Below are positions 13,852-43,264 of a stretch of 64,000 nt of DNA, piece after piece (within the stretch, counting starts at the first letter, position 1; each line of letters starts with the position of its first letter). The stretch lies in contig JAJXYN010000009.1 of assembly GCA_021780535.1 (NCBI GenBank), positions 224,360-288,359 on the forward strand. The letters are read 5' to 3'. The notes under the pieces are model-generated. The model saw nothing but the letters and a program-made list of their open reading frames with translations, did not search any database and was not told where the DNA came from. Source of the stretch: a bacterium. GTDB taxonomy: Bacteria; Patescibacteriota; Patescibacteriia; JAGPKW01. Both the position numbers and the translations under genes were made by a program.

Positions 13852-15282
13852 TTAGATAGTAAACAATCTTATTGAATTATTAATATCTTTTATATTAAAA
13901 TGCATTCCTGAAATTATTAAAACATTTTCACCTTGTTTAATCATTTCTTTTTCTTTTAACTCTTCAATAATGCAATCCATTTTATCTCCTTTGTACTTAT
14001 TAAAATCAATAAATATTGGTTTTATTCCGTATGACATTGTTAATCTTTTTGAAATATTTATATTTTCTGTTACTGCTATTGTTGGGATTTTCAATCTATA
14101 CGATGATATAACTTTTGATGTAAATCCAGATTCTGTGAATACAATAATTTTATCTATGTTTATATTACTTTTGTCTTCAATCATAGCAACAGCTGTTCTA
14201 GCTAATAAATGAGACACTCCTATTGCCTCTGTTTCAGTGTCTGTTGGCTTAAGAGTTGGGGCAAATTCTTCATTATAATCAGCTATTTTAGCCATTGTTT
14301 CAACTGCTTTTACTGGATATTTTCCAGCAGCTGTTTCTCCTGATAACATAACTGCATCTGTTCCGTAAAGCACAGCATTTGAAACGTCTGTCGCCTCTGC
14401 TCTTGTTGGTCTTGAATTTTGACACATTGATTCTAACATTTGTGTAGCTGTAATAACAGTTTTGTTTGCTGCTCTACATTTTTCTACCATCTTTTTTTGT
14501 TCATTAGCTATTCTTTCTATTGGAATTTCTATACCTAAATCCCCTCTAGCTATCATAATAGCATCAGAAGCTTCTATAATTTCATCTATATTATTTAAAC
14601 CTTCCTGATTTTCTATTTTTGAAACTATCCAAGAATCAAGATTTCTTTTTGCCATTTCTTCTCTGGCTTTTATAACATCTTCTTTTGATCTACAAAAACT
14701 TATAGCTATAAAATCTGCTTTCATTTCTGCTGCTAAGTCTAGCTTATCAAAATCATCTTGAGTTAATGCTGGAATTTTTGATAATTTTTTATCTGGCAAA
14801 TTTAATCCTTTTCTATTTTTAACTAAACAATCTCCTTGAGCTTCTGCATAAACTCCATTTGAAGTTTTTTCTATTACTTTGAATTCATAAAAACCGTCAT
14901 CTATTAAAATAGAATCACCAACATTTAATTCTTCAAAAATTACACTGTGAGAAATTTTAACTGATTGGGCATCTGTTGTGCTAAAATCTGATCCAAAATG
15001 TAATTTATTGCCATTTTTAACTTCTATTGGAGCTTTATCTGTTGTATCAACTCTTATATCTGGCCCTTGAAGATCAAATAATATTCCAACATTTGCTCCT
15101 AATTTTTTTATAACTTCTTGAGCTCTTTCTACTTTTGGTCTATACATTTCAGCTGGCTCATGCTTCATATTAAATCTAAAAACATTAACACCTGCTTTTA
15201 CTAATGATTCTAATGTTTCAGAAGAATCTGAGGCTGGCCCTATTGTTGCAACTATTTTCGTTTTTCTATTTCCTAAGAACAT
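13852..15282 (-). CDS. pyk: Pyruvate kinase
   Basis: 476 aa. KTKIVATIGPAS N-terminus and the NMKHEP/barrel and C-terminal domain order of PK. Confidence 0.9.
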   Translation of the reverse strand: MFLGNRKTKIVATIGPASDSSETLESLVKAGVNVFRFNMKHEPAEMYRPKVERAQEVIKKLGANVGILFDLQGPDIRVDTTDKAPIEVKNGNKLHFGSDFSTTDAQSVKISHSVIFEELNVGDSILIDDGFYEFKVIEKTSNGVYAEAQGDCLVKNRKGLNLPDKKLSKIPALTQDDFDKLDLAAEMKADFIAISFCRSKEDVIKAREEMAKRNLDSWIVSKIENQEGLNNIDEIIEASDAIMIARGDLGIEIPIERIANEQKKMVEKCRAANKTVITATQMLESMCQNSRPTRAEATDVSNAVLYGTDAVMLSGETAAGKYPVKAVETMAKIADYNEEFAPTLKPTDTETEAIGVSHLLARTAVAMIEDKSNINIDKIIVFTESGFTSKVISSYRLKIPTIAVTENINISKRLTMSYGIKPIFIDFNKYKGDKMDCIIEELKEKEMIKQGENVLIISGMHFNIKDINNSIRLFTI

Positions 15283-15436
15283 ATATTTACTTTTTTATTA
15301 TTTTAACTTATTTATGTAGATATATTATGTTATATTATTTTTATAAAAAAATCAATTTGATATTTTATTATTGCTTATTTTCATGTTTTGTCTATAATAT
15401 TATTATATTATAATAATTATTAATTATACTCTTTAT

Positions 15437-20679: not shown

Positions 20680-20774
20680 TTAATTATAGTTTAAATTTAT
20701 TAAATTTATTAAATTTTTAAACTCTAATATTTTTATCAATTAATTTATAGTATTAATTCACAAAAATATTTTAT

Positions 20775-24692: not shown

Positions 24693-25985
24693 ATGAATTT
24701 TTTAAAGAAAAATGCTGGGAAGATATTAATATTCATCCTATCCTTAATCCCAATAATTTTTTGGGCAACAACTTACGATCTGCAAACAAAGTTTAATACA
24801 ATAAGCTCTACCTTTATATCTCTTACTCAATTATCTGGATTAGTCGGTTTTGTTTTATTTGCTGTAAATATAATAATAGGAATGAGATCAAAAATACTTG
24901 AAAAGTTTTTTAATTCTATTCCTGATATTTATAAACTGCACAGATTTTTAGGAATATCATCTTTTGTTTTATTATCTCTTCACCCACTTTTTATTATTAT
25001 AAATTATTTATCTTTTTCAATTAAATTTGCTGTTGATTATATTTTTTCTTTTACTGATTTAAGTTTGTCTTTAGGAAAAATTTCACTAATTGCAATGTTT
25101 TTTATCATATTAACGACAATATTTTTAAAAATAAAATATGACACATGGAAAATAATCCATAAAATTTTATCATTTTCTTTTTTTATTGGATTTTTTCATG
25201 TATTAGTTGTAAATAGCACTGTATCAAGAAATATGGGATTACGATATTACTTGCTTTTTTTAGGCACAATTACTGCTTCACTTGCTATATATAAAATTAT
25301 TTTTAATATAAATTTAGCAAAAATTTATAAATACTTGGTTGTTAATATAAAATTTATAAACAATAATTCTATGGAAATAGAATTATCTCCCATTGATAAA
25401 AAAATATATTTCAAACCAGGCCAATTTGTCTTTATAAAAATTAATCAAGAAAAATTAGATGAAGAACATCCTTTTTCTATATCATCAGGAGTTAATGAAA
25501 AAAATTTAAAAATTACTGTTAAAAATCTTGGAGATTATACTTTAGATTTAAGAAATAAATTAAAAATGAATTCTATAGTTAGCATAGATGGCCCTTATGG
25601 TGATTTTTATACTGATAATAAAAAAGATAAAATATTTATAGCTGGCGGAATAGGAATTACACCATTTTTAAGTATATTAAAAGCTGAAAGAACAAAAAAT
25701 AATATTACATTATTTTTTTGTGCTAAAGATAAAAGCGAATCAGAACTTATTAATGACATAAAACAAACACAAGATATTCATCCAAATTTAAATATAATTG
25801 AAATATATTCCTCAATAAGAGATCGTATTTCTATTAAAGATATTAAAAGCGTCCCAAATTTTGAAAATTCTGATATTTTTATTTGTGCGTCAAGCGTTAT
25901 GATGAATGATATTAAAAATCAACTTATAAATAATGGGTTTGATAAAAAAAATATTTACTTTGAAGATTTTAGTTTTAAAAAATAA
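24693..25985 (+). CDS. NOX/ferric-reductase-like flavocytochrome (FRD transmembrane domain plus FAD and NAD(P)H-binding domains)
   Basis: Two His pairs spaced 13 residues apart in transmembrane helices (HRFLGISSFVLLSLH, HKILSFSFFIGFFH) for bis-heme. HPFSISS FAD motif. GGIGITPF NAD(P)H motif. Confidence 0.8.
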   Translation: MNFLKKNAGKILIFILSLIPIIFWATTYDLQTKFNTISSTFISLTQLSGLVGFVLFAVNIIIGMRSKILEKFFNSIPDIYKLHRFLGISSFVLLSLHPLFIIINYLSFSIKFAVDYIFSFTDLSLSLGKISLIAMFFIILTTIFLKIKYDTWKIIHKILSFSFFIGFFHVLVVNSTVSRNMGLRYYLLFLGTITASLAIYKIIFNINLAKIYKYLVVNIKFINNNSMEIELSPIDKKIYFKPGQFVFIKINQEKLDEEHPFSISSGVNEKNLKITVKNLGDYTLDLRNKLKMNSIVSIDGPYGDFYTDNKKDKIFIAGGIGITPFLSILKAERTKNNITLFFCAKDKSESELINDIKQTQDIHPNLNIIEIYSSIRDRISIKDIKSVPNFENSDIFICASSVMMNDIKNQLINNGFDKKNIYFEDFSFKK

Positions 25986-26053
25986 TTTTGAGTAAATTTA
26001 TAAAATAAATAATCGTATTAAAAATATAGACTTAATTAAGTATTAATAATTTT

Positions 26054-26551
26054 ATGGAAACAAAAAATATTGTTGTAGCTAGCGTTGTTGGAGTTGCTGC
26101 TGTAAGTTTTATTGGATGGCAAATCTCAAATAGTAAGAGCTATCAACCATCACAACAAAATAATTCGTTATCAACTACTACTAATACTGACAGTGGCCAA
26201 AATAATATTACTACCCCAACTGTTACTAGTACAAATAATCAAAACAATTCTACTTCATATAAAGATGGTAGTTATTCTGCAGATGGCTCTTATTTAGTTT
26301 CTGATAAACAAGAAACTATTAAACTGTTATTAGATATATCTAATAACAAAATAACATCTGCTAGTATCACACCTATTAACGTTAGCCATGATAGTCAATT
26401 TTATATCAATATGTTTCAACAAGGATTCACTTCTTTGGTTGTAGGAAAAAATATAGATGACGTAAATTTAACTGTTGTAAATGGTGCATCTTTAACTCCT
26501 AACGGCTTTAACGAAGCTTTAAATGCTATAAAATTACAAGCTAAAAACTAA
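26054..26551 (+). CDS. Membrane-anchored extracytoplasmic FMN-binding domain protein (flavinylation substrate candidate)
   Basis: N-terminal transmembrane helix, Ser/Thr/Asn-rich linker, and a C-terminal FMN_bind-like domain with VVNGASLTPNGFNEALNAI (the [S/T]GA[S/T] flavinylation-type motif). Confidence 0.6.
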   Translation: METKNIVVASVVGVAAVSFIGWQISNSKSYQPSQQNNSLSTTTNTDSGQNNITTPTVTSTNNQNNSTSYKDGSYSADGSYLVSDKQETIKLLLDISNNKITSASITPINVSHDSQFYINMFQQGFTSLVVGKNIDDVNLTVVNGASLTPNGFNEALNAIKLQAKN

Positions 26552-26554
26552 CTA

Positions 26555-27430
26555 ATGAAAAAATTTGAATTTGATTCTATTGGATCTCATTTTGAAATAT
26601 CTATTTACGATAATATTGATGATGTTTTTTTTGAACAAATAAAATCTGACATACTTGCTTGGATAAATGATTTTGATAATAAATACTCTAGATTCAAAGA
26701 TTCTTCTGTTGTTTCTTTTTTAAACAATAAAATTGGAGTATTTTCTGTAAGAGATGATTTTTCAGAAATAATGACTTGGTATTTTAAATTGTATAAATTA
26801 TCTAACCACAAATTTACTCCACTTATAGGATCTATGTTAGATGATCTTGGTTATGATAAAAATTATACCTTAATACCAAAGGATAAAATTAATAATATAT
26901 CTGATTTATATGAATCAATAAAAATTTTAGATAAAAATAAAATAGAAATAATAAAACCAGTTAATTTAGATTTTGGTGGAGTTGGAAAAGGATATTGCGT
27001 TGATGTTATAAAAAGTAAACTAGAAAAATATAATATAAAAAAATTTATAGTTAATGGTGCTGGAGATATTTTTTATAAAACAAATGATACTGAATCAATA
27101 ATTTCTGGACTTGAAAATCCTAATAATTTTTCTCAAATAATAGGAACTATAAACATTAAAAATCAATCTATTTGTGCATCTTCTGGAAGTAGAAGAAAAT
27201 GGGATAAATATCATCATATAATAGATCCTGACTTAAAAAAACAAAATGACGAAATAGTTGCTACCTGGGTAATAGCAGAGAATACCTTGATAGCAGATAC
27301 AATAGCTACATGTTTATTTATGTGCTCACCAGAAAATTTTCAAAATGATTTTAAATTTGAATACTGTATATTAAATAAAGATATGAAGATAAAAAAGTCA
27401 AATGGATTTGATGCTAAATTTTATCAATAA
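26555..27430 (+). CDS. apbE: FAD:protein FMN transferase ApbE
   Basis: GGVGKGYCVD (ApbE GG[IV][AG]KGY) and SSGSRRKWDKYHHIIDP C-terminal motif. Confidence 0.8.
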   Translation: MKKFEFDSIGSHFEISIYDNIDDVFFEQIKSDILAWINDFDNKYSRFKDSSVVSFLNNKIGVFSVRDDFSEIMTWYFKLYKLSNHKFTPLIGSMLDDLGYDKNYTLIPKDKINNISDLYESIKILDKNKIEIIKPVNLDFGGVGKGYCVDVIKSKLEKYNIKKFIVNGAGDIFYKTNDTESIISGLENPNNFSQIIGTINIKNQSICASSGSRRKWDKYHHIIDPDLKKQNDEIVATWVIAENTLIADTIATCLFMCSPENFQNDFKFEYCILNKDMKIKKSNGFDAKFYQ

Positions 27431-27444
27431 CTATGATAACTAAA

Positions 27445-27469
27445 CTATTGCTTTTTTTATAAAATAGTA
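27445..27469 (+). promoter_or_regulatory. Conserved 25-nt upstream motif ctattgctttttttataaaatagta (copy 1), a promoter -10 plus operator-like sequence
   Basis: Identical 25-mer at 27880-27904, the same distance (about 40 nt) upstream of paralog 2. Contains TATAAAAT and the small inverted repeat CTATT…AATAG. Confidence 0.45.
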
Positions 27470-27507
27470 TTAAGTTTATACAAATACTTTTAAATGGAGG
27501 TCTAAAT

Positions 27508-27756
27508 ATGTATATAGAAGTTACGGAAACCAAATTTTATAGCATCATTACAAAATTAGAACAAGCCGGTATCTCCTTTATTAGAAATGATGACCCAAAA
27601 AATGGTACCGCTATATTTATATATAAAAAAAATGGGAAAGATAAAGTTATTGCTAGAATACATGTAGAAAATTTTAGTGATCCAAAAGAAATATGGAAAA
27701 GAATATATCAAATAGATAATATATTTTTTAAAGAACTTGAAATTCCTATAGATTAA
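27508..27756 (+). CDS. Small paralog-family protein 1 (82 aa)
   Basis: GGAGG ribosome-binding site. Shares a core with the next two genes (T/D-A-I-I/F-I-Y-K-K-N-G…R-V-I-A-R-I-H). Confidence 0.55.
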   Translation: MYIEVTETKFYSIITKLEQAGISFIRNDDPKNGTAIFIYKKNGKDKVIARIHVENFSDPKEIWKRIYQIDNIFFKELEIPID

Positions 27757-27764
27757 TATTATTA

Positions 27765-27845
27765 TAGCTCTATAATTGATATGAATAGAGCTATTTTCCG
27801 CCAACACAATCATTAATAAGCAAAAAGTGTTAGCGGATTTTTATT
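27765..27845 (+). terminator. Tandem hairpin terminators after paralog 1
   Basis: tagctctat/atagagcta (9 bp) followed by ccgccaacac/gtgttagcgg (9 of 10 bp) and a T-run. Confidence 0.5.
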
Positions 27846-27945
27846 TTATAATAACCATAAAAAAATATTGTATCTATTACTATTGCTTTTTTTATAAAAT
27901 AGTAATATAAATTATAATACAACAAGTTATTTTGGAGGTTATAAC

Positions 27946-28230
27946 ATGCTTATAGACGTTACAGAGGCTCAGTTTCGTAGTTTTATCGATGAATTGGATA
28001 AAAAATTTCGTGAGAATGGAAAAATCCTAACAATGGACGATGATTTTAAAAATGATACAGCCATTATATTCTGTTATGCAAAAAATGGTATAAATAGAAT
28101 TGCTGCTCGAGAATACGTGAAAAATCCTACTGATCTAAAAATAGAATGGACAAAGGGATACGAAATAAATGATAAATTATTTGATGAATTTAATATTTCA
28201 ATAGAAGGCTTTCAGATTCTTACACGGTAG
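27946..28230 (+). CDS. Small paralog-family protein 2 (94 aa)
   Basis: MLIDVTEAQFRSFIDEL…TAIIFCYAKNGINRIAAREYV is homologous to the proteins encoded at 27508 and 28369. GGAGG ribosome-binding site. Confidence 0.55.
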   Translation: MLIDVTEAQFRSFIDELDKKFRENGKILTMDDDFKNDTAIIFCYAKNGINRIAAREYVKNPTDLKIEWTKGYEINDKLFDEFNISIEGFQILTR

Positions 28231-28244
28231 AATATTAAAATTAC

Positions 28245-28288
28245 CCTAGCTAGACCAAATTCACTCGTTTAGCTAGGTTTTTTATTTA
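28245..28288 (+). terminator. Rho-independent terminator after paralog 2
   Basis: cctagcta…tagctagg 8-bp stem followed by tttttattt. Confidence 0.55.
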
Positions 28289-28368
28289 TAAACAATAATT
28301 AACCTTGATTTTTTTCACAAAACAAGATTAAATTAACATAAACTACTTTTAATAAAGGGGGTTATTAA

Positions 28369-28644
28369 TTGTATATAGATATTACGCCAAACCAATTTAT
28401 TGACCTTATCAAGATACTGGCCGTTAGAATAAAAGAAAATGGAGCATCTCTTGAAAGGCATGGTGATCACAAAGATGGTATAATTATATTTATTTATAAA
28501 AAACATAATATGACAAGAGTTATTGCTAGAATACATAAATATAACCCGAATAAACAAAATAAAAATTTGGAGAAAATATATCAAATAGATGATAGGTTGT
28601 TTAAATATTCTATTATTTCTACTGAAGATATGAAAACTTTTTAA
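28369..28644 (+). CDS. Small paralog-family protein 3 (91 aa, TTG start)
   Basis: MYIDITPNQFIDLIK…GIIIFIYKKHNMTRVIARIH. GGGGG ribosome-binding site upstream. The start codon is TTG. Confidence 0.5.
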   Translation: MYIDITPNQFIDLIKILAVRIKENGASLERHGDHKDGIIIFIYKKHNMTRVIARIHKYNPNKQNKNLEKIYQIDDRLFKYSIISTEDMKTF

Positions 28645-28779
28645 ATAATAATATTTATTTCTATTAAGTAGAATACTTAATAAGTGTTTTATAATTATGA
28701 TGTTATTTTGACATAAATTATAAAATGTTGTATTTATTTATATAACAACTTTAGTCAGTCTAATAAATAGGGGGATTTT

Positions 28780-29076
28780 ATGAAGAAAAGAGCCACGGCA
28801 AAAATTATATTTAAAACACTAAATGAGGCTTTAGAGGCAAAAAATAATGGCGATACTGATCTTTTGTTAAAATTAAGAAAAAAGGCTATTGGTTATCAAT
28901 GGGATATACTTAGACAAGCTGAAGAAGCTCAAAAACTTGGCAATAATGCTATTGCTAACGAATTAATGTCTATTATTGATAAATCAAAAATTATTACTAT
29001 TAGTACTTTTCCAAAAAATATCCAGAACGAATTAAAAGAAGTAATTGAAATATGCGAAGCATCTAGAAATTCTTGA
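28780..29076 (+). CDS. Hypothetical small alpha-helical protein (98 aa)
   Basis: Strong ribosome-binding site (agggggattttatg). A terminator follows. Confidence 0.45.
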   Translation: MKKRATAKIIFKTLNEALEAKNNGDTDLLLKLRKKAIGYQWDILRQAEEAQKLGNNAIANELMSIIDKSKIITISTFPKNIQNELKEVIEICEASRNS

Positions 29077-29093: not shown

Positions 29094-29125
29094 AATCCGC
29101 TAAAAATATGGCGGATTTTTTATTA
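29094..29125. terminator. Terminator hairpin aatccgc…gcggatt followed by a T-run
   Basis: 7-bp stem and a U6 tract. Sits between convergent genes. Confidence 0.5.
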
Positions 29126-29179
29126 ATTAAATTAAAAATAGGAACCACATATATAGTGGCCCCTATTATTTTCTTATTA

Positions 29180-29953
29180 TCAGAATGTGGTTACAGCTAC
29201 CCCCGGACGCAGAAATTCACCATATTTCTTGTAAATCGCGTCACAGGTTCCATCTTTTTTGAGAGCTTCAAATGCATCAATCCATTTTTGCACAATAGCT
29301 TTATCTGTTGTTTTAGAAAAAGCTATCCAAAGTTGAGCCCTCAAAAAAACAAACTGTTGCTTAACATCACTTGGTTTAGCCTCAACATCAGCAAGTTGGT
29401 TTGATGATCCAACTACTGACAAAACTACTAGGTCAGTCCTGTTGTTGAGCATTTTTTTCAAACTTGTTACATAGTCTGCTGACCTATCGAGATTTGAAAA
29501 ACCTGCACTGGTAAGAAACTGATCCCTGACGTCATTTAGAACAACGCCAATTTTTGCTACATTCTTAGCATCTTCCAATGATTTGATAGACAATTTAGAA
29601 TCTGCTCTTGAATAAAGAGCATAATTATTCTCCGTTAGCGGTCCAACCCATTGAAACAATGGATTTCTGGCCTTATTGCGGGCCATGCTAAAAAGAACCA
29701 CATTAGGAGAATCACTTTGTATCAAACCATAGCCTCTAGCCCATGGAGCAACTTCTATTGGATCTGTATTCCCAACACGTTTTTGAATCGCTTGGACCAG
29801 TTCCACGGAAAGACCCTTGAGGTTTTTATTTGCATCAGTGAATTGAAATGGAGCATTTTCTTCGCAATAAATGCTGAGAGTCTGCGAGTAGCCAAAAACT
29901 GTGACTACTCCAAAAAAAAGCAGAGCAAGAACCATCCTCGTTTGCAACTTCAC
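29180..29953 (-). CDS. Periplasmic/extracellular solute-binding protein, family 3 (SBP_bac_3)
   Basis: 257 aa. Signal peptide, type 2 periplasmic-binding fold pattern. Noticeably higher GC codon usage than its neighbours. Confidence 0.7.
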   Translation of the reverse strand: MKLQTRMVLALLFFGVVTVFGYSQTLSIYCEENAPFQFTDANKNLKGLSVELVQAIQKRVGNTDPIEVAPWARGYGLIQSDSPNVVLFSMARNKARNPLFQWVGPLTENNYALYSRADSKLSIKSLEDAKNVAKIGVVLNDVRDQFLTSAGFSNLDRSADYVTSLKKMLNNRTDLVVLSVVGSSNQLADVEAKPSDVKQQFVFLRAQLWIAFSKTTDKAIVQKWIDAFEALKKDGTCDAIYKKYGEFLRPGVAVTTF

Positions 29954-33446: not shown

Positions 33447-34868
33447 ATGGACAATGAAGAATTATTAGACAAAATACTTCAAGATAAAATTGAGAATGAA
33501 ATAATAGAATTCAAGGAAGCTAAAAATAATTTTGATTTAGATGATTTAGGAAAATATTTTTCTGCATTAAGCAATGAAGCTAATTTAAATAACGCAAACA
33601 ATGCGTATCTTGTATTTGGTATTGATGATAATAAAAAAATAGTTGGGACAACTTGGAAAGATAGTGAAAAGGAAATAAATAAATTAAAAATGTTTATTTC
33701 TGAACATACTGCTAATTCAATTACATTTGAAAATATAATAGTAATAACAAAAGATAAAAAGAGGGTTTTGATATTTGAAATATCTCCAACACCAATAGGA
33801 ATACCAATGTCTTGGAAGGGGCATTTTTATGGCAGAAATGGAGAAAGTTTAGTCCCATTAAATATTGATAAAATAGAAAAAATTAGAAAACAAACAAAAA
33901 TATCATTTGAAAAAGAGATATCAACTGATAATCTAACGGAGGATGAAGTTCTTGGATTACTTGATTATTCAAAATATTTTAGTTTATTAAGCTTCCCCAC
34001 ACCTAAAACAAGAGAAGGCATAACAAGAAAATTGATTGATGATGGTTTTGTTGTTAGAGATGGAAATAGTTTTAAGATAAAAAATTTAGGAGCTATCCTT
34101 TTAGCTAATAATTTAAATGATTTTGAAAAAGTAAAAAGAAAAAAAATAAGAATTATATTATATAAAGGAAAAAATAAAATTGAAACAATAAGAGAAATAG
34201 AGATACAAAAAGGTTATGCTGTTGGTTTTACTGATATAGTTAACAATATAAACACTATATTACCGTCTAATGAAGAGATTTCAAAATTTTTAAGAACAGA
34301 AAAAAAGATGTATCCAGAAATAGCCATAAGAGAATTACTAGCAAACTCATTAGTGCATCAGGATTTCACAGTAACAGGAACAGCACCTATGATTGAAATA
34401 TTTGATGATAGAATAGAGATAACAAACCCAGGAAGTCCCTTAATAGATATAAATAGATTTATAGACCACCATCCACAATCTAGAAATGAAGGCGTTGCCA
34501 ATATAATGAGAATGATAAATATTTGTGAAGAAAGAGGTAGTGGAATAGATAAAGTAATAGCCAGTATAGAGGTATATCAATTACCACCATTAAAAATAGA
34601 AAAATATGAAAATTTTACAAAAGTGATACTCTATTCTGATAAAAGATTATCTTATATGGACAAGAATGATAAAATAAGAGCTTGCTATCAACACTGTTGT
34701 TTAAAGTATGTTGGTAACGAAATAATGACAAATGCCACATTAAGAGAGAGACTTGGAATAAAAAGTGAAAACTATTCTACCGTTTCTAGAATAATAAGAG
34801 ATACTATAGAACAGGGCTTAATAAAAGAATATAAAAATAAGGAATATATACCATTTTGGGCTTCTTGA
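33447..34868 (+). CDS. AlbA_2 (Schlafen-like divergent AAA) plus HATPase_c_4 domain protein, a putative ATP-dependent DNA-binding/defence-associated protein
   Basis: IEFKEAKNNFD…ALSNEANLN…AYLVFGIDDNKKIVG N-terminal AlbA_2 pattern. C-terminal AIRELLANSLVHQDF…IEITNPG HATPase_c_4 pattern plus a wHTH. Confidence 0.7.
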   Translation: MDNEELLDKILQDKIENEIIEFKEAKNNFDLDDLGKYFSALSNEANLNNANNAYLVFGIDDNKKIVGTTWKDSEKEINKLKMFISEHTANSITFENIIVITKDKKRVLIFEISPTPIGIPMSWKGHFYGRNGESLVPLNIDKIEKIRKQTKISFEKEISTDNLTEDEVLGLLDYSKYFSLLSFPTPKTREGITRKLIDDGFVVRDGNSFKIKNLGAILLANNLNDFEKVKRKKIRIILYKGKNKIETIREIEIQKGYAVGFTDIVNNINTILPSNEEISKFLRTEKKMYPEIAIRELLANSLVHQDFTVTGTAPMIEIFDDRIEITNPGSPLIDINRFIDHHPQSRNEGVANIMRMINICEERGSGIDKVIASIEVYQLPPLKIEKYENFTKVILYSDKRLSYMDKNDKIRACYQHCCLKYVGNEIMTNATLRERLGIKSENYSTVSRIIRDTIEQGLIKEYKNKEYIPFWAS

Positions 34869-34904
34869 TGTGATTTTATATATAACAATATAAAACAATA
34901 TAAA

Positions 34905-34932
34905 AAAAATATGCTAATTTTAGCATATTTTT
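34905..34932. terminator. Bidirectional terminator (perfect 12-bp hairpin aaaaatatgcta/tagcatattttt)
   Basis: Lies between the convergent AlbA_2 gene and the defence operon. Confidence 0.5.
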
Positions 34933-34984
34933 TATGTGACTGGAATGTGATTTTAATAAATTATTATCTAAAATAAGGTATTTT

Positions 34985-35446
34985 TTATTTAAACTCATTA
35001 ACAATAAATTTATGTATATTTTTATCTTTTATTTTTCTTAAATATTTTAATAGCAAATCATAAGCTTTGTGTTCTTTATTCTTAGACCAAACAATATTAT
35101 TATCCTCTCTTATTATATCTGAACTTAAAAAGTTTTTTAAAACATCTAAATCTGAGAAATAAGGCACTATGAGTTTATCAAATACTGTATTGTAGTGAGC
35201 ACCCCAACTACACTCTATAAAATGTTTTAGTAACTTTTCTGAATTGTAATTTACTATACATTTTAGAGCTAATTTATCTGCATAGATACAATCAGAATAT
35301 AACACTAAAAAATCATCATCTTTCCCTAATAGTTTTATTATACTACTAAAACTAAAACCACAATTTAGACAACCATTTTCAGTGTCTTGCAAAGTAATTT
35401 TTGTATCACATTTTGGACAAATTAAATATTTTTCAAAAATACCCAT
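34985..35446 (-). CDS. Zn-ribbon protein (last gene of the R-M-linked operon)
   Basis: N-terminal CPKC…(17)…CLNC zinc ribbon. 153 aa. 10-nt gap to the upstream gene. Confidence 0.45.
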   Translation of the reverse strand: MGIFEKYLICPKCDTKITLQDTENGCLNCGFSFSSIIKLLGKDDDFLVLYSDCIYADKLALKCIVNYNSEKLLKHFIECSWGAHYNTVFDKLIVPYFSDLDVLKNFLSSDIIREDNNIVWSKNKEHKAYDLLLKYLRKIKDKNIHKFIVNEFK

Positions 35447-35456
35447 TTTTATTAAA

Positions 35457-35741
35457 TTATTTTATTGGACTAAATATATCTTTTTGTTTTTTATATTGTT
35501 GTTCTTGGATAGCTTCTAAACTTTTTTCCATTATCTTCTTTCTATAAGCTAGTATCTCTTCTCTATAAAAAAGAAAGTAATTTAGTTTAGCATTTTTAGA
35601 ATAATCTGCTAATTGTTCTAAGTCATTAGCTAAAGCCTCTATTCTTTTTACTGTTTTTTCTGCTTTTTTTATTATTATATCCTGCTTCTTTAGAAATACT
35701 TTTTCATTTTTTTCTATTTGGTCAAATCTTCTTGGTGGCAT
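35457..35741 (-). CDS. Small coiled-coil protein (94 aa) in the R-M-linked operon
   Basis: Heptad-rich, Lys/Glu-rich. 18 nt after the nuclease-like gene. Confidence 0.4.
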   Translation of the reverse strand: MPPRRFDQIEKNEKVFLKKQDIIIKKAEKTVKRIEALANDLEQLADYSKNAKLNYFLFYREEILAYRKKIMEKSLEAIQEQQYKKQKDIFSPIK

Positions 35742-35759
35742 ATTCTTTTATTATTATAA

Positions 35760-37229
35760 TTATATATTATTTAAATAATTCAATATCTTAACCATAGCAA
35801 GCGTATCAAGATGACAATAAGTAGTTAAATCCTTATGTATTTTATCTCTATCTTCCTGAGTAAATCTTTCTTCTAATATCATCTCTCTCCAACTATTTGA
35901 AGCCGTCATTCCTTCTTTAATATTAAGCTCTTTGTATGATAATTCTGGAACAAGTATTGGGAGAACTTTTTTAATAGACCAACTTCCGTGAAATCTTCCG
36001 TCTACATAATAAGCATCGTGGAATATGTCCATTAAATCAAATACTCTTTCATTTACATTTAACAAGAAATTATTGTAATTAGGATATCTTTCAGCCATTT
36101 CTCTATTACAACCCATTTCAAAAGATTTATTCCATACAATTACGCTCCCATTATCATCTTTTATTATTTCTTTTAATGTTTTAACTAAATCTATAGAAGG
36201 GTCAGTATTTTCTTTTCCTAGAAATTCAAAATGTTCTAATTCTGAATATGGGGTTTGTTGTATGTGTAATGAATATTGAAATACAACTCTTTGGTATGGC
36301 TTATATCCATTAAACATAGGAATAGCTGGGTTTAAAGTTTCGTAATCAAGAAAATATAAAGGATATTTTAATTTAGATAATTCTTCCTTTATTTTATCTT
36401 TCTCTATATGAGGTTTTCCTGTATTTAAACTCTCTACATAGTATTTCTTTAAATCATTTGTAAGATAACTATCAGGTATATCTTTAGCGTGTATTATTCC
36501 TTCATCAATTAAATTCATTAACTTATTCTCTCTGAATTGAAAGTTATAAATACTATCATCAGGAATATCTTTTTGGCAGTAATCTATAAAATTACAAGTT
36601 TCTGGATTTTTACATTGAGAAAGTATTTCAACATTAAGTTCTTCTTTAAATGTAAGAACTTCTTTTAATTTACTTATTTCATTTTTAACTTCTTCTAGTT
36701 TTTCTATAACTTCTATAGTCTTGTTTTCAATACTAAAATATTGATTTATATCTATTTCACCATTTCTAATATATTGATTATTAACGTGAACTACATAAGT
36801 TTCACCAATACTTAATCCTTGTTTTTCTAATACAATCTTTTGAAAAGCTAAATCTTTAATATGTTGTTTATCTACTTCTGTAGTAGCTTTAATTTCATAT
36901 ATATCAAACTTATTTGTTTCGTTATTAAATTTTAATATATCAGAACGACAATATAACTCATCAACAATAAAAGTGGCTTGATGAATGATTTTAGCACCTT
37001 CTTTAATATATTTTTCTGTTTCTAAGCTACCTTGAAGTTTATCCTCTGTAATTATCTTATCTTTACTATCAAATAACTTATATGCGAGAGTTTCAACTTG
37101 ATATCCTTCTTCTATTTTAAGTTGTTCATTTTTATCTGGAGGTAATACTAAATCTGGTCTATTGATAAATAGCCAAGCAAATTTAGGACATTGTATAAAA
37201 CGTAGATAGTCGGATTTTGTTATTAACAT
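35760..37229 (-). CDS. Nuclease-like protein with an N-terminal Cas4-like PD-(D/E)xK module and a C-terminal FLDYET-bearing domain (recalled as DUF2779)
   Basis: MLITKSDYLRFIQCPKFAWL N-terminus. D…D…EIK motif (VDELYCRSD…IYEIKATT). Cys cluster CKNPETCNFIDYC. C-terminal YFLDYET…VVFQYSLH…VWNKSFE (DEDD/RNase-H-like). The start abuts the res stop (37229/37230). Confidence 0.5.
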   Translation of the reverse strand: MLITKSDYLRFIQCPKFAWLFINRPDLVLPPDKNEQLKIEEGYQVETLAYKLFDSKDKIITEDKLQGSLETEKYIKEGAKIIHQATFIVDELYCRSDILKFNNETNKFDIYEIKATTEVDKQHIKDLAFQKIVLEKQGLSIGETYVVHVNNQYIRNGEIDINQYFSIENKTIEVIEKLEEVKNEISKLKEVLTFKEELNVEILSQCKNPETCNFIDYCQKDIPDDSIYNFQFRENKLMNLIDEGIIHAKDIPDSYLTNDLKKYYVESLNTGKPHIEKDKIKEELSKLKYPLYFLDYETLNPAIPMFNGYKPYQRVVFQYSLHIQQTPYSELEHFEFLGKENTDPSIDLVKTLKEIIKDDNGSVIVWNKSFEMGCNREMAERYPNYNNFLLNVNERVFDLMDIFHDAYYVDGRFHGSWSIKKVLPILVPELSYKELNIKEGMTASNSWREMILEERFTQEDRDKIHKDLTTYCHLDTLAMVKILNYLNNI

Positions 37230-39473
37230 TTAGTTTAAACTTATAAGATTGCCGTTACTAACTTCATATACATCATTTGTGTTTAATTTAAATAATCTAC
37301 CGTTTTCTTTTGGTATAACTATACCACCAAATAATTTATTATTTCCAGCTTCTTTTATATATTCCTGTAGGGCTTCTGCTTTTAACTTTGTTTCTAATTG
37401 TTCTGCTGTTATTCCTTCTTTTGTATCAAAAATACCAATTCTTTCATCTTTATATTTTACTATAAAATCTGGATAAAAACCTTTTAGCTCATTATTCATT
37501 TTATAAGTTATTCCAAAAAATATTTTATTTCCTTGTCCATTTTTAAACCACCACTCAATCTCACTACTTTGTTCCAAATAATTATTTATAAAGTCATTTT
37601 CAGTTTTCCATTTATTATCTAAAAAACAAGGACTTAATATACATTTATCAAAATTGTTTTCATTAAACGTATCTGGGTATGATAAATATTCCGGTACGTT
37701 AAATATTGTTTCAATAGGTTCTTTTATTTTTATTTCTCTTGATTTTATATATTCATCTTTTGATTTATTTATTAAATCTATAAAAAAACTCTGATTTGTT
37801 AATACGATACTTTGTATATCTAATCTACTTTTATTTTGTTCTTCAAATCCAAGATATTTTTCAAAAAGTTCATATATTGATTGCTCTAATATCCCAGTAG
37901 ACCTAGATTGTTGAAATGGAGCACATAAAGAGCTTAAAAATGAGTAAAATAATACTTTTACATATGAATATGATTGTTTAAATTCTTCTTTTTTATCACC
38001 ACTCAAAAAGATTTTGTTATCTATTTCATCTATATTTGAAAATCCTAAATTTGTTATAATTTTTGTATTTAGTTCTTTATTAAAATCAATAAATTTATTT
38101 GCTATGTTTATGTTTTCTTTACTTTTTTCTATATCATAAAATCCATTTATTTTATTAAAAAACTCTTTATGTAAAAATGGTCTAAATTCTAACTTTAAAT
38201 CATTGTAATCAATTCTAGGTAAATAGTATGATTTTAGATTTATGTTTGAGTATAAATTTTTTCTTTTTGCTTCTTTTCTTTTTATGTATTCTTGGGCAAC
38301 ACCTTCAGCAATAGAAATATTTTCTATATTTGTATATAAATAAGCTTTATTTAAATCTTCATTTTGGTAATGCTTTAGTTCTGGCATTCTCATTATTCTA
38401 CCAACTGTTTGTATTTCAAAAATTTGACTTCCTGTTTCTCTGAATTTAATTAAAATTTGAGCCCTTGGACAATCCCAACCAGTCGCTATTGCTTGTTTAA
38501 AGATTAAAGCATCTATAATACTGCTATTTCTATCTATTTCTTCTAAATTCACTTTATCTTCTGAAAGCCACAAAGATAATCTTTTATTTTCTTCTGTTAT
38601 ATTAAATTTATTTTTTAAAATATCTTTAATTTCATCAATTTTTTGTTTGTCTAAATCACTTAAAGTACTCTTTTCATTTGGTAATTGAATTAAAATAAGA
38701 GGATTTATATTAGAATTATTTTTTAAATATAAATCTTTTAAATATTTTTGTTTTTTAATAGCTTCCTCTATTATTGCTTCATCTATAATTAAATTTCTAT
38801 CATTTTTTAACTCTGGATTTATAATAACTTCTTTTTTTATCATTTGTTCATCAATAACATCCTGTAATTCTACGTCAACATTCGGGTTTTCTTCTGGTGT
38901 TGCGGAAATATCTATTTGTAGTTTTGGTTGAATAATTTCATCTATTATTTTTTTACTATCTATCGTCATATGTAAATGACTTTCGTCTATAATAAGAATA
39001 ATTGTTCTACCTTCATCTTTTGCGTTTGTTATAAAATTTTTTAAATTTCTGTTATATTCATTATCCGCCATAAAAATATTAGTATAATCACCAGATTGTA
39101 TACCTTTTTCAGGATTATCCTGTTTTGCTTTATTTCTTATTTTTTCCCAATTTATAAAAAGTATCTCATTTTGTTTTAATATATTATCTTGGACATCTTC
39201 TAAATTTGAAAACTTAAAAACACCATTATTTATTATAGATTGAAGTCTATTTTTACTTTGATTATGTAATTCGTGTATAGATAACCAAACAAAGCTAAAA
39301 TTACCTTGTATTTCTTTAGTAAATCTTTCTAGATATTTTGCTATCATAACTGTTTTTCCAGAGCCGGTAGGAGCTTTAAATACTATTTTTCTGTTATCAT
39401 TTTTATTTAAAAATTTCACAGTCTCTTCAAAAAGTTCGTTTATAGCTTTTATTTGATAATTTTTTAATTCCAT
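37230..39473 (-). CDS. res: Type III restriction enzyme, Res subunit
   Basis: 747 aa. SF2 helicase motifs (KAPTGSGKT, LIIDESHL, TVGRIMRMP) and a C-terminal PD…(D/E)xK (YPDFIV…IFDTKEG). Directly downstream of mod. Confidence 0.8.
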   Translation of the reverse strand: MELKNYQIKAINELFEETVKFLNKNDNRKIVFKAPTGSGKTVMIAKYLERFTKEIQGNFSFVWLSIHELHNQSKNRLQSIINNGVFKFSNLEDVQDNILKQNEILFINWEKIRNKAKQDNPEKGIQSGDYTNIFMADNEYNRNLKNFITNAKDEGRTIILIIDESHLHMTIDSKKIIDEIIQPKLQIDISATPEENPNVDVELQDVIDEQMIKKEVIINPELKNDRNLIIDEAIIEEAIKKQKYLKDLYLKNNSNINPLILIQLPNEKSTLSDLDKQKIDEIKDILKNKFNITEENKRLSLWLSEDKVNLEEIDRNSSIIDALIFKQAIATGWDCPRAQILIKFRETGSQIFEIQTVGRIMRMPELKHYQNEDLNKAYLYTNIENISIAEGVAQEYIKRKEAKRKNLYSNINLKSYYLPRIDYNDLKLEFRPFLHKEFFNKINGFYDIEKSKENINIANKFIDFNKELNTKIITNLGFSNIDEIDNKIFLSGDKKEEFKQSYSYVKVLFYSFLSSLCAPFQQSRSTGILEQSIYELFEKYLGFEEQNKSRLDIQSIVLTNQSFFIDLINKSKDEYIKSREIKIKEPIETIFNVPEYLSYPDTFNENNFDKCILSPCFLDNKWKTENDFINNYLEQSSEIEWWFKNGQGNKIFFGITYKMNNELKGFYPDFIVKYKDERIGIFDTKEGITAEQLETKLKAEALQEYIKEAGNNKLFGGIVIPKENGRLFKLNTNDVYEVSNGNLISLN

Positions 39474-39476
39474 ATT

Positions 39477-41195
39477 TTAAAAATTAAATATCTTCTTATA
39501 TGTTTCTAGTATTGGGTCTGGTATATCTTCCAATTCCAAATTCAAATTTAAATGTTCCAATTCTTGTTTAAAATTTATTTTTGATGGAGAAAATATATAC
39601 ATTTTAATCTTCTTATGTTCTAATTTTAATAAGTCTTTTTTAAATTCATCAAACATAAATAAATCAAATAAAATAGCTAGATAGATATCTTTATTTTGAT
39701 AAATTTTTATCATTTTTCCATTTTTTACAACACTAAAACAATCCTCTTTTAAACAAAGAATTTCTGTTGACCTATTAACCATTTTTTTTCTTAAGTCATC
39801 TGTTATTTTATCTAAATTTATAAAATCTGTTTTTAAATATTTTAGATTTCCTTTGAGGGCTTTTATTGTTTTGCCCTTTTTGTTTTTATAGCCCTCTATT
39901 ACTTTTTTTATTCTTAAATAACATATATCTTCGCATATTTTATGTTCAGATTTTTCATCGCCATTATTTGTACATAGTATAAATTTTCTATTCCCATTAT
40001 CTTCATTATTTAATTCCAAAACAGCTTGTCCCGTTGTTCCTGAACCAGCAAAAAAATCTAAAACAGTTATGTTATTATTTTTATTTGTAATTGAAATTAA
40101 ATGTTTAATAAGTTCTTTTGGTTTAGAAAAAGGAAAATCAATATCTAGTTTAATAAGTTCTTTTGAGCCCATAGAGTTTGGCATATCAATAAAAGTAAGT
40201 GGCTTCATACCAGCTTCTTGTCTTTCGTGTAAATAAATTTTTGTGTAAACATTCCATATAGACCTTTTACCACTCTCATCTATTAAAGGAGATGTTTTTG
40301 TTTTTAGAAAAACAACTCTATTTTCTTCTAATTTTGATTTAAATGTAGATGGTATCCATCTAAACATTTTATTTTCAAAAGGAGTTGTAACCTTTGTTCC
40401 GTCTGGGCACTCTATAAAATATCTCTGATTTGGACGTTTATCTAGACTTGGCATATATAAAGATACTAAATTATATTTTCCTCTATCATCTGAATATTTA
40501 AATAATTTTATATATTCAGAACTTTCTTGAGCTTCAGCATCGTTAAATTCTTCTAATAAATCTATATTTTTTGCATAACAAAGAATGTAATCTGTTGAGG
40601 GAGAAAAAAATCTACCCTTATTACTTGTTTCTTTTTGTTTTCTAACTACATTTGCTAAAAAATTTTGTTCTCCAAATATTTCATCGCATAATATCTTTAA
40701 TTGATACAATTCATCATCTCCAATTGAAATAAATATAACCCCATTATTATTTAGAAGTTCCTTAGCTAATTTCAATCTTTTATTCATAAAAGATAACCAC
40801 TTAGAATGTCTAAATCTATCTTCTTTATCAACAAATACATCATTATAAATGAAATCTTTATTCCCAGTATTGTATGGTGGGTCAATATATATAACATCTA
40901 TTTTTTCTTTATGTGTATAGCTTAACACAGACAAAGAATGATAATTATCTCCTTCTATAAGTATGTTCATACTATCATTTATATCAGATATTACATCATT
41001 ATAATTATCTTTTTTCTTCTCACTTAAAACAGGAAGGGATATTTCAGATTGTTTTTCAAAAATCTCTTTTTTATCTTCCCATATTAAACCATACCTCTTA
41101 TTTTTTTTAACAGTTTTTATTTGTTTTTTTAACTTTTCTATCTCATTTAATAATTCTTGTTCTTTTTGATTGTTTTGCATAAAAAAATCGGACAC
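39477..41195 (-). CDS. mod: Type III R-M DNA methyltransferase, Mod subunit (N6-adenine, beta class)
   Basis: DPPY motif IV (IYIDPPYNTG) before the C-terminal motif I (FFAGSGTTGQA). GTG start at 41195, with an alternative ATG at 41180. Confidence 0.8.
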   Translation of the reverse strand: MSDFFMQNNQKEQELLNEIEKLKKQIKTVKKNKRYGLIWEDKKEIFEKQSEISLPVLSEKKKDNYNDVISDINDSMNILIEGDNYHSLSVLSYTHKEKIDVIYIDPPYNTGNKDFIYNDVFVDKEDRFRHSKWLSFMNKRLKLAKELLNNNGVIFISIGDDELYQLKILCDEIFGEQNFLANVVRKQKETSNKGRFFSPSTDYILCYAKNIDLLEEFNDAEAQESSEYIKLFKYSDDRGKYNLVSLYMPSLDKRPNQRYFIECPDGTKVTTPFENKMFRWIPSTFKSKLEENRVVFLKTKTSPLIDESGKRSIWNVYTKIYLHERQEAGMKPLTFIDMPNSMGSKELIKLDIDFPFSKPKELIKHLISITNKNNNITVLDFFAGSGTTGQAVLELNNEDNGNRKFILCTNNGDEKSEHKICEDICYLRIKKVIEGYKNKKGKTIKALKGNLKYLKTDFINLDKITDDLRKKMVNRSTEILCLKEDCFSVVKNGKMIKIYQNKDIYLAILFDLFMFDEFKKDLLKLEHKKIKMYIFSPSKINFKQELEHLNLNLELEDIPDPILETYKKIFNF

Positions 41196-42642: not shown

Positions 42643-42860
42643 TCGGATTTATACTCGGATTTTTTAAAAAATAGCTAATATATGGCTATTTTTTATTTGA
42701 ATATTTTTATTTTTCATAAGTATATCGTATTTTATGTCGTTGTTAATAAATCACCAAAACCGAGAATAGTAGCATATTTTAAGTTATGAAATAATACAAA
42801 ATGAAAATATTTTCTAAACAACAAACTGCAGTTTGAATATTTAATAATAAAAATAAAATT

Positions 42861-43112
42861 ATGTTCAAATATTTAAAAGAAAACGATTTTTTTACAACTC
42901 CAGACATTTGTCTTGGGGCTACAATATTGTATTTTGGATACAAAATAGAATGTGTTGAAAATAAAAACAACAAAACACACTTCTCTTTTAGAAGAGATAA
43001 AAAACTAGATGATTTAATACAAGACCATTTAAATCATTTATTAAAGGTTGAGCCTATGATGTTTTTTGAAAAAACAAAAGAACTTAAAAAAAGAATACAT
43101 TTTGGTATATGA
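42861..43112 (+). CDS. DUF5659-like small protein
   Basis: FFTTPDICLGATILYFGYKIECVEN…THFSF…LKVEPMMFFEKTKELKKRIH matches the remembered DUF5659 pattern (F-T-D-L-L-A…G…F-F…E-P…L-K). Confidence 0.45.
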   Translation: MFKYLKENDFFTTPDICLGATILYFGYKIECVENKNNKTHFSFRRDKKLDDLIQDHLNHLLKVEPMMFFEKTKELKKRIHFGI

Positions 43113-43264
43113 ATTTAAAAGAAAAAGACATTAAAGAATTCCAAAGGCTTTATAAAGAAGAATTTGGAGAAGAATTGGATTTTGAAGAAGCAAAAAAACA
43201 ATGTGACGACTTCCTTGAATTTATGGTTTTATTCTTCAAACCAAAAAATCTTATAAAATATTAA
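43109..43264 (+). CDS. Small acidic ORF (51 aa), ATGA-overlapped with the upstream gene
   Basis: MNLKEKDIKEFQRLYKEEFGEELDFEEAKKQCDDFLEFMVLFFKPKNLIKY. Translationally coupled position. Below the ORF-track cutoff. Confidence 0.3.
   Translation: MNLKEKDIKEFQRLYKEEFGEELDFEEAKKQCDDFLEFMVLFFKPKNLIKY

Follow-up and report, generated by a model that had tools for sequence, protein, structure and literature searches.

Three small, diverged genes lie side by side on the forward strand of a 64,000-nt window (the whole stretch of DNA analysed) from an uncultured bacterium of ~26% G+C, probably of the Patescibacteria/CPR (candidate phyla radiation) to judge by the names of homologs of its ApbE, and the first two share an identical 25-nt sequence upstream. 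What do these genes encode, and what keeps the shared sequence the same? The genes, c1, c2 and c3, occupy positions 27508-27756 (82 aa, ATG start), 27946-28230 (94 aa, ATG start) and 28369-28644 (91 aa, TTG start). A Shine-Dalgarno sequence could be read ahead of each, GGAGG at 27496-27500 and 27934-27938 for c1 and c2 and GGGGG at 28357-28361 for c3, with the spacing to the start codon being exactly 7 nt in all three. Pairwise protein identity is 43% for c1/c2, 39-40% for c1/c3 and 34-38% for c2/c3, and the three-way alignment contains 19 invariant columns. Tblastn inside the window linked the three with E values of 3e-13 to 3e-11 and found no fourth copy in the 64,000 nt. Their coding DNA is 56-63% identical (63% for c1/c2), and dN/dS between paralogs ranges from 0.38 to 0.81, with c1/c3 at ~0.8. 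The three small tandem paralogs described in the original prediction, each with its own Shine-Dalgarno sequence, prove to be genuine and to have diverged from a single gene.

The locus is also found in four metagenome contigs from three ENA samples, which are 98.7-99.4% identical and show the same gene order and intact ORFs, with ~10 nonsynonymous and 7 synonymous differences in the ORFs. Both copies of the 25-nt sequence are unchanged in these strain variants, which is uninformative at ~1% divergence. Because independent assemblies agree in order, ORFs and 25-mers, misassembly is excluded.

Searches for relatives returned very little. A c1-c3 profile run against 5.8 billion protein clusters (word-indexed) recovered only the three proteins themselves, and 1.84 billion representatives searched exhaustively with a HMMER profile yielded nothing more. 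Nothing meaningful came from a scan of viral contigs with the c1-c3 alignment, from tblastn against phage and plasmid records or from PDB sequence searches, and scans of c1, c2, c3 and the adjoining gene orf4 with Pfam, NCBIfam, PADLOC and PHROGs gave no match above threshold. Among the weaker matches, c1 resembled DUF5659 (PF18903) over residues 11-44 only (14.2 bits, E 0.041, below the gathering threshold of 23.6), and Pfam found no such match in c2 or c3; a literature search on DUF5659 gave nothing relevant. Residues 3-55 of c1 aligned weakly with positions 9-61 of the 86 in phrog_10741 (E 0.0044, 18.4 bits), which did not match c2 or c3, and phrog_6041 was weaker (E 0.11). These phage-family profile matches of c1 span helix 1 to strand 3. 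In PADLOC-DB, we found one weak partial match, between c1 and a 359-position homing-endonuclease model (E 0.012, 13 bits), and none for c2, c3 or orf4, which does not make up a defence system. As far as sequence searches of these collections reach, c1-c3 is a species-restricted tandem paralog family, seen in no other organism.

The array is located between two convergent conserved blocks, and its base composition is native. Upstream is a flavinylation operon (ferric-reductase-like, FMN-binding-like, ApbE); downstream are orf4, an SBP_bac_3 protein and an MCP. In the nearest ApbE-carrying contigs found (identity 72%, 68% and 52%), the array genes are absent downstream of apbE. The adjoining orf4 (28780-29076, forward strand, 98 aa) is unrelated to c1-c3 and is itself an orphan, recovering only itself from the 5.8 billion word-indexed clusters. 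It looks helical, its PDB sequence search returned designed helical-repeat proteins only, and a promoter-like site (TTGACA-17-TATTTA) precedes it at ~28709-28737. A prophage context for the array was rejected, since no phage genes adjoin it and the only recombinase (46205-47827) is 18 kb away.

Two consecutive hairpins follow c1 at 27764-27848 (27764-27794 and 27797-27837, with a U-rich stretch after the second), consistent with one or more intrinsic terminators; they fold at -23.1 kcal/mol (z -4.9), and none of 200 shuffles folds as well. After c2, a stem of 11 bp runs into UUUUUU at 28245-28283, a predicted intrinsic terminator with a centroid energy of -15.2 kcal/mol (z -4.9). The hairpin after c3 (28668-28692) is built of A and U only and is no better than shuffled sequence (-8.6 kcal/mol, z -0.88). 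Thus the proposal that each copy has hairpin terminators of its own holds for c1 and c2 and fails for c3, and because the c3 hairpin is not convincing as a terminator, read-through from c3 into orf4 is possible. A strong intrinsic terminator at 29094-29117 (z -3.1), also reported by the terminator scan, follows orf4 and closes a four-gene orphan islet. Only tRNAs reached the gathering score in an Rfam search of the whole window, and between 27300 and 29300 the sole match at E <= 1 fell on the orf4 terminator (25.8 bits; gathering score 48). The three copies can also be aligned along the length of their upstream regions, which argues that the duplicated unit was the whole expression cassette.

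The shared 25-mer, CTATTGCTTTTTTTATAAAATAGTA, occurs exactly twice in the window, at 27445-27469 and 27880-27904, and its 3' end lies 38 nt from the start codon of c1 and 41 nt from that of c2, bearing out the predicted distance of about 40 nt. No further match was found in the window with up to three mismatches allowed (0.01 expected by chance). The full near-identical block covers 28 of 29 nt (27444-27472 versus 27879-27907), for which we estimate a chance of ~0.01 allowing for all positions; this is far above background, because the coding DNA of c1 and c2 is so much less alike. Each copy holds a -35-like TTGCTT (27448-27453 and 27883-27888) and most of a 17-nt spacer, and is followed by a candidate -10 read from the sequence, TAAGTT at 27471-27476 for c1 and TATAAA at 27906-27911 for c2. 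Ahead of c3, upstream alignment and motif search identified a diverged homolog of the motif at 28298-28334, with TTGATT at 28305-28310, a T7 run and a candidate -10, T(T)AAAT(T), at 28328-28334. Assigned by eye, the geometries are TTGCTT-N17-TAAGTT, TTGCTT-N17-TATAAA and TTGATT-N17/18-T(T)AAAT(T), and the distance from the end of the candidate -10 element to the start codon is 31 nt for c1 and 34 nt for both c2 and c3.

The 25-mer is thus most likely the promoter of c1 and c2, judged by the position of these putative elements. A consensus promoter scan reported just an alternative for c2 (TTTATA-16-TATAAT, 27891-27918) and did not list the TTGCTT-based promoters, and its count for the region equals that of shuffles; the -10 of c1 matches only three of six consensus positions, and that of c2 fails the T6 rule. 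Each of the three regions also contains a dyad. That of copy 1 (27444-27468) is ACTATT-N13-AATAGT, that of copy 2 is extended to 10 bp (27875-27907), and the c3 upstream region has its own, TTAAcCTTG...CAAGaTTAA. As hairpins, the dyad of copy 1 is not significant (z -0.16) and that of copy 2 reaches -7.0 kcal/mol (z -3.15); the fold of the c3 motif region has z -2.07. The dyad is a possible operator. Both the promoter-like position and the dyad support the idea that a regulatory element was retained ahead of diverging coding parts.

The core of the motif is found elsewhere. Seventeen of the 18 bases of TTGnTTTTTTTATAAAA recur upstream of the housekeeping gene pyk (pyruvate kinase) in the same window, where TTGATTTTTTTATAAAA sits 56-73 nt upstream of the gene, and the motif class TTGNTTTTTTTNNNAAAA has 8 matches versus 3.4 expected. 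A 23-mer search of metagenome and viral contigs hit three unrelated contigs. One match lies inside an MmeI-like gene; another, of the exact 23-mer, is found 48 nt upstream of hisS in a metagenome contig, where it forms a textbook promoter, TTGCTT-17-TGTATAAT. We put all three down to chance or to a generic promoter-like shape. The same core at pyk and hisS indicates that the motif is a generic strong-promoter shape with putative family-specific dyad arms. The original prediction had read the 25-mer as a promoter/operator and had named its occurrence upstream of unrelated genes among the findings that would refute its reading. Part of it does occur there, the core at pyk and the 23-mer at hisS, so that the core is not specific to the family, and the motif is mainly a good promoter.

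A generic promoter requires just two hexamers, which leaves an identity of 25-29 nt unexplained, so either an operator or a gene-conversion event must be added. In the second case the identity would reflect history and not selection, one promoter having recently been overwritten in a short gene conversion or exchanged for a copy of the other, which would imply nothing beyond an ordinary promoter. The 25-mer is common to only two of the three copies, the c3 version has diverged at about the rate of the coding DNA and the core has a generic shape, all of which favour such an event. The identity nevertheless ends abruptly at both edges of the 29-nt block, with flanks that are unalignable or poorly aligned, while gene-conversion tracts are normally longer than this and require flanking homology. 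We consider this history unlikely, although it is the most serious of the alternatives.

AlphaFold (AF2) gave a confident beta-alpha-beta4(-alpha) fold. The c1 model, built from an alignment of three sequences, has a pLDDT of 83, with strands at residues 2-5, 24-29, 34-41, 44-54 and 64-70 and helices at 7-19 and 71-77, and the c3 model (pLDDT 78) has the same order of strands and helices. The hydrophobic core is invariant, as are the aromatic and basic sheet residues F37, Y39, K41, R50 and Y67 (c1 numbering), whereas the net charge has diverged widely, the pI being 6.6 for c1, 4.8 for c2 and 9.5 for c3. No catalytic motifs were seen in c1-c3. Because core and sheet residues are fixed while charge has shifted so far, the models suggest that c1-c3 are probably small binding proteins.

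Comparison with PDB structures gave no convincing match. Weak structural matches included the TBP-like proteins YwmB and BDI_3606 and the AFT2 DNA-binding domain, and the beta-alpha-beta4-alpha topology of the TBP-like fold (YwmB 2fpn, BDI_3606 4jhy, RNase HIII N-terminal domain 3vn5) resembles that predicted for c1-c3. In a Foldseek search of small phage proteins (BFVD), matches reached TM 0.5-0.73, with probability up to 1.0 and E from 1.8e-3 to 1e-2. These proteins, A0A2I7QXW5, UPI001E787706, F1D167 (Vibrio phage ICP1 ORF45) and A0A646QWR1 (Roseobacter phage CRP-5), are like the c1-c3 models in size (66-98 aa) and alpha+beta fold, but their sequence identity to c1-c3 is just 9-17% and the array is without phage context. 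The BFVD phage proteins, phrog_10741 and DUF5659 are all uncharacterised, so the resemblance transfers no mechanism to c1-c3. Since the nearest structural neighbours are uncharacterised phage proteins of 70-80 aa, we tentatively suggest that c1-c3 may be small proteins of the phage-pool type, which would act by binding a cellular partner and modulating it. This guess draws on the absence of catalytic motifs and on a structural resemblance that is weak (Foldseek E about 1e-3).

Together, these data point to an account that we favour with about even confidence, in which triplicated cassettes carry a small alpha+beta orphan family. A complete monocistronic expression cassette would have been triplicated in tandem, each unit comprising a sigma-70-type promoter, a strong Shine-Dalgarno sequence at a fixed 7 nt and an ORF of 82-94 aa, with intrinsic terminators of their own for c1 and c2. 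As a core promoter the 25-mer would be kept identical, and its dyad may let it serve as an operator too; it would drive c1 and c2 independently and probably strongly, with the diverged version serving c3. The products would be small soluble alpha+beta proteins acting as binding modules and not as enzymes.

Among the other alternatives, the proteins could be autoregulatory, binding as TBP-like dimers to the A/T-rich dyad that covers their own -35 and spacer, with c1 and c2 sharing one operator and c3 having co-evolved with another, in line with the earlier suggestion of regulators with variable specificity. In favour of this, all three promoters have a dyad in the same position, c3 with arms of its own, the identity takes in all 25-29 nt and not only the hexamers, the aromatic and basic residues of beta3-beta5 are invariant, and the topology is TBP-like with the weak matches to YwmB, BDI_3606 and the AFT2 domain. 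We regard this as improbable. A broader version seems equally improbable to us, in which lineage-born proteins, or phage-captured ones diverged beyond recognition, are sheet-surface binders of their own promoter dyad or of another nucleic-acid or protein target, and the 25-bp promoter-operator couples expression of c1 and c2. If true, it would add a new class to the small regulators or inhibitors, one specific to a bacterium of the candidate phyla radiation.

Tandem arrays of immunity genes are known, such as EsaG/DUF600 downstream of EsaD in Staphylococcus and the SUKH/Imm families. In common with the immunity arrays of polymorphic-toxin systems, c1-c3 are small cytoplasmic paralogs that stand in tandem and have diverged, their core being conserved and their surface variable. 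They might represent an orphan immunity array, belonging to a polymorphic-toxin system or to a bacteriocin system, in which every paralog would counter its own variant of a competitor's toxin. Unlike such arrays, they have no adjoining toxin and occur in one species only, and c1 and c2 appear to be transcribed separately, each having a promoter-like site and a terminator of its own. The genes follow the flavinylation operon and not a toxin gene. Pfam scans of window proteins matched none of them to a toxin or secretion-system family. One of those scanned, the 1636-aa ORF at 52325-57235, was rejected as a nearby polymorphic toxin, since no toxin domain was found in it and the locus around it is of the WxL surface-protein type. 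There was no match to Imm, SUKH or any other immunity family (Pfam, NCBIfam, E <= 1), and immunity families are normally widespread, whereas c1-c3 have no homolog in the collections searched. The immunity reading is therefore slightly less probable still than autoregulation, and the earlier assignment to an immunity, defence, anti-defence or regulator family found no support, with nothing significant in Pfam, NCBIfam, PADLOC or PHROGs.

A further parallel may lie in taxonomically restricted tandem families, as tandem-duplicated orphan gene families are common in candidate-phyla-radiation genomes. The likeness is in short proteins, local duplication, the lack of homologs outside the species, the native base composition and the place between two convergent conserved blocks; the array differs in that the c1/c2 promoter block is kept base for base and the structure predictions are confident. 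These two features argue for a maintained function and not for the noise of gene birth. The remaining alternative, that c1-c3 have no function as genes, being either open frames that A/T-rich DNA offers by chance or pseudogenes in decay, draws on the lack of homologs and known domains, on antisense "shadow" ORFs of similar length at 27556-27813 and 28333-28584 and on the fairly high dN/dS of c1/c3, but is very improbable and already largely refuted, as the proteins align with a conserved hydrophobic pattern despite the divergence of their DNA, Shine-Dalgarno spacing is identical and terminators are present, AF2 gives c1 and c3 the same confident fold from very shallow alignments, every strain variant keeps the ORFs intact, and at 26% G+C, where stops are frequent, at least 82 open codons would arise by chance at ~6e-4 per start by our calculation.

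At present, the triplicated cassettes of our favoured account are just another cluster of hypothetical proteins, clear in its anatomy and lacking a testable tie to a known pathway. If a defined partner is found, the locus would be a compact case of an orphan gene whose birth, fixation and diversification went by way of duplicated cassettes, in an uncultured bacterium with a small genome, and of a promoter held constant while the charge of the product shifts from acidic to basic. It would also open a first way into the function of a fold seen repeatedly in small, uncharacterised phage proteins.

Three small ORFs, c1, c2 and c3, are arranged head-to-tail on the plus strand. c1 (27508-27756; 82 aa) and c2 (27946-28230; 94 aa) start with ATG and are preceded by GGAGG Shine-Dalgarno (SD) sequences at 27496-27500 and 27934-27938, and c3 (28369-28644; 91 aa) starts with TTG and has GGGGG at 28357-28361; in all three, the SD-to-start spacing is exactly 7 nt. 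Full-length alignment of the proteins gave 34-43% identity with 19 invariant columns. Within the window, tblastn returned their mutual matches (E 3e-13 to 3e-11) and no fourth paralog, and the coding DNA of c1 and c2 is only 63% identical. These results bear out the original prediction of three small tandem paralogs, each with its own ribosome-binding site. The same gene order, intact ORFs and both copies of an upstream 25-mer, unchanged, recur on four short metagenome contigs, which come from three ENA samples and share 98.7-99.4% identity with the window; since these contigs are independent, an assembly artefact is excluded. Antisense ORFs overlap c1 and c3 (27556-27813 and 28333-28584, minus strand; 85 and 83 aa); they were rejected as genes, their I/F/Y/K/N-rich composition being the usual one for shadow ORFs where DNA is A/T-rich. 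The array is real and cleanly organised.

The 25-mer, CTATTGCTTTTTTTATAAAATAGTA, was found exactly at 27445-27469 and 27880-27904, as had been noted for copies 1 and 2, within a block identical at 28/29 nt; no further copy exists in the window with up to three mismatches allowed (0.01 expected by chance). The 80-90 nt before the start codons of c1, c2 and c3 are mutually alignable, and c3 is preceded at the equivalent position by a form of the motif that has diverged, ACCTTGATTTTTTTCACAAAACAAG. Judged from these alignments, the duplicated unit is the whole cassette, beyond the ORF alone. Hexamers assigned by eye gave candidate sigma-70-type promoters of common geometry on the plus strand: TTGCTT (27448-27453), N17 and TAAGTT ending 31 nt from the start codon in c1; TTGCTT (27883-27888), N17 and TATAAA ending 34 nt from it in c2; and TTGATT (28305-28310), N17/18 and T(T)AAAT(T), also ending at 34 nt, in c3. 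An alternative register, TTTATA-N15/16 followed by TATACA (c1) or TATAAT (c2), fits about equally well, and a consensus promoter scan reported that register alone, and for c2 only. In either register the 25-mer would span the -35 region and spacer of the predicted promoters. RNA folding revealed two strong terminator hairpins after c1 (z -4.9) and a terminator with an 11-bp stem and U6 after c2 (z -4.9), whereas c3 is followed by a weak A/U hairpin only (z -0.9), the next strong terminator lying 3' of the adjoining orf4. The proposal that each copy has its own terminator thus holds for c1 and c2 and fails for c3.

A promoter alone needs no 25-29 identical bases, which points to an overlapping operator or a short conversion event. 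The part of the motif specific to c1 and c2 is a dyad, ACTATT-N13-AATAGT, with two matches against 0.18 expected. It is lengthened to 10 bp in copy 2 (hairpin z -3.15), c3 carries its own dyad at the equivalent position (z -2.07), and the copy-1 hairpin is no more stable than those of shuffled sequence (z -0.16). Gene conversion, instead of selection, might have produced the identical 25-mers and would be compatible with our main account; because c1/c2 identity drops abruptly at both block edges, we regard conversion as less likely than an overlapping operator, and as unlikely overall. The anatomy that we consider likely is one of three independently transcribed cassettes, in which the 25-mer would form the core of the promoter and probably overlap an operator.

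The core of the motif, TTGnTTTTTTTATAAAA, also occurs 56-73 nt upstream of the pyruvate kinase gene (minus strand, 15355-15338; 17/18 identical). This site before pyk (13852-15282), read at 15333-15355 (minus strand) as TTGATTTTTTTATAAAAATAATA, is a near-copy of the 25-mer core and suggests a recurrent TTGnT7ATAAAA promoter architecture in this genome. The motif class has 8 matches in the window versus 3.4 expected, and three unrelated metagenome contigs of 30-42% G+C (L010, L011 and L012/L013) contain the exact 23-mer, CTATTGCTTTTTTTATAAAATAG; one of the three is also listed as a viral contig. In L011, the 23-mer (2607-2629) lies 48 nt upstream of hisS (histidyl-tRNA synthetase gene) and would form a textbook TTGCTT-17-TGTATAAT, a perfect extended -10 promoter. 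In another of the three contigs, the 23-mer falls inside an MmeI-like gene and was judged a chance match. Because we estimate that roughly 0.4-2 matches are expected by chance, the exact 23-mers are probably coincidence or convergence. Given the recurrence of the core at pyk, in the motif class, at hisS and in the other 23-mer contigs, the motif appears mostly not private to the family and largely a generically good promoter shape. Of the proposed retained promoter/operator, the promoter is reasonable, but the motif itself is largely generic.

When 5.8 billion protein clusters were searched with a profile, and 1.84 billion representatives exhaustively with HMMER and no word index, only c1-c3 themselves came back. 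Searches of viral contigs, of phage and plasmid records and of PDB sequences yielded no relatives. Pfam, NCBIfam, PADLOC and PHROGs gave sub-threshold matches only, all to c1 and all in the region from its first helix through strand 3 (DUF5659, E 0.041; phrog_10741, E 0.0044; phrog_6041, E 0.11; a homing-endonuclease model, E 0.012). No sequence-based test that we ran placed the proteins in DUF5659, PHROG, PADLOC or Imm families. By these searches, c1-c3 are orphans; the unrelated orf4 (28780-29076; 98 aa) is an orphan as well.

AlphaFold2, from alignments of only 3 (c1) and 8 (c3) sequences, gave one common arrangement (c1, pLDDT 83, pTM 0.71; c3, pLDDT 78), with a predicted order of strand, long helix, four antiparallel strands and short C-terminal helix. 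This is the element order of the TBP-like fold, a likeness that is topological only. Foldseek found no PDB match below E 0.019; among the structure libraries searched, BFVD gave the best matches, to uncharacterised phage proteins of 66-98 aa (E 1.8e-3 to 1e-2, TM 0.73 at most), and the likeness to such small phage orphans is again topological only. Signal peptides and transmembrane segments are absent from c1-c3, which have pI values of 6.6, 4.8 and 9.5, respectively. Invariant residues are mostly core hydrophobics, together with F37, Y39, K41, R50 and Y67 on strands 3-5, several of which would share one sheet face, judging from residue alternation. We tentatively propose that c1-c3 may be small proteins of phage-pool type that have no enzymatic role and would act as binding modules for a cellular partner. 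They might instead be autoregulators that bind the dyads, a reading weakened by the acidic c2 and by the motif core at pyk, and one we hold to be improbable.

The array has 23-27% G+C, equal to the genome's 26%, and so c1-c3 and orf4 form a native-looking 1.7-kb islet of four orphans. Upstream of it is an extracytosolic flavinylation operon (24693-27430), whose products are a ferric-reductase-like/FAD/NAD protein, a secreted FMN-binding-like protein of 165 aa and ApbE; on its other side is a convergent SBP_bac_3 gene. This solute-binding gene (29180-29953, minus strand; 34-39% G+C versus ~26% for the window) was possibly acquired horizontally, and it shares with the islet a bidirectional terminator region (29094-29167). 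The FMN-binding-like gene and apbE are adjacent on the related contigs fetched, some labelled Daviesbacteria, and all named homologues of ApbE (40-50% identity) are from Patescibacteria/CPR lineages, so that, judged by this one gene, the source organism is probably a CPR bacterium. Downstream of apbE, homologues of c1-c3 and orf4 are missing from the contigs with the closest ApbE (72%, 68% and 52% identity); in one, the place holds a terminator and a convergent gene, and in the closest, L014, a duplicated FMN-binding gene flanks apbE on both sides. Compared with MAG GCA_027355865.1 (contig DAIEHF010000006.1), the window has three changes only, none in the array. At ~23722, an A-run inside an MFS transporter gene is one base shorter in the window (ORF of 307 versus 405 aa; frameshift or assembly error), and a 9-nt TTAAATTTA duplication lies at 20691-20699 between rpoD and dnaG.

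Further downstream, in a defence-like block (33447-41195), genes for a type III restriction subunit (37230-39473) and a DNA methylase (39477-41195) are accompanied by those for a Schlafen/AlbA_2 and HATPase_c_4 protein, an orphan of 153 aa and a DUF2779 protein. The region 41545-47890 is probably a mobile element integrated at a tRNA: its large serine recombinase (46205-47827), preceded by five ORFs without Pfam or PHROG function, shares ~12 nt with tRNA-Gly (47816-47890, minus strand). Within 52325-58597 (minus strand), a 1636-aa ORF, whose sole Pfam domain is a weak DUF1349 match, adjoins a WxL-interacting-protein (WxLIP_PGBD) gene; we rejected it as a polymorphic toxin, the locus looking like a Gram-positive-type surface-protein locus. 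The suggested immunity or defence role drew no positive evidence: no polymorphic toxin among the window proteins scanned, no Imm family match, no PADLOC match above threshold, and no relatives were found, which makes an orphan immunity array very doubtful.

Paralog dN/dS values were 0.38, 0.49 and 0.81, with dS near-saturated. Strains differ by about 10 nonsynonymous and 7 synonymous changes, clustered in the c2 C-terminus and two c3 loops, some near contig ends where they may be errors. Constraint thus estimated is moderate to relaxed, with frames intact, a pattern compatible with functional, fast-evolving genes and short of proof of positive selection. That c1-c3 are not genes at all is scarcely credible.

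Restricted families arising by local duplication are frequent in poorly sampled lineages with distant sequenced neighbours. The array resembles this ordinary phenomenon, in which a gene family confined to one taxon grows by local duplication. Here the best non-self ApbE is only 72% identical. That genes of an under-sampled CPR lineage should be orphans is no surprise by itself.
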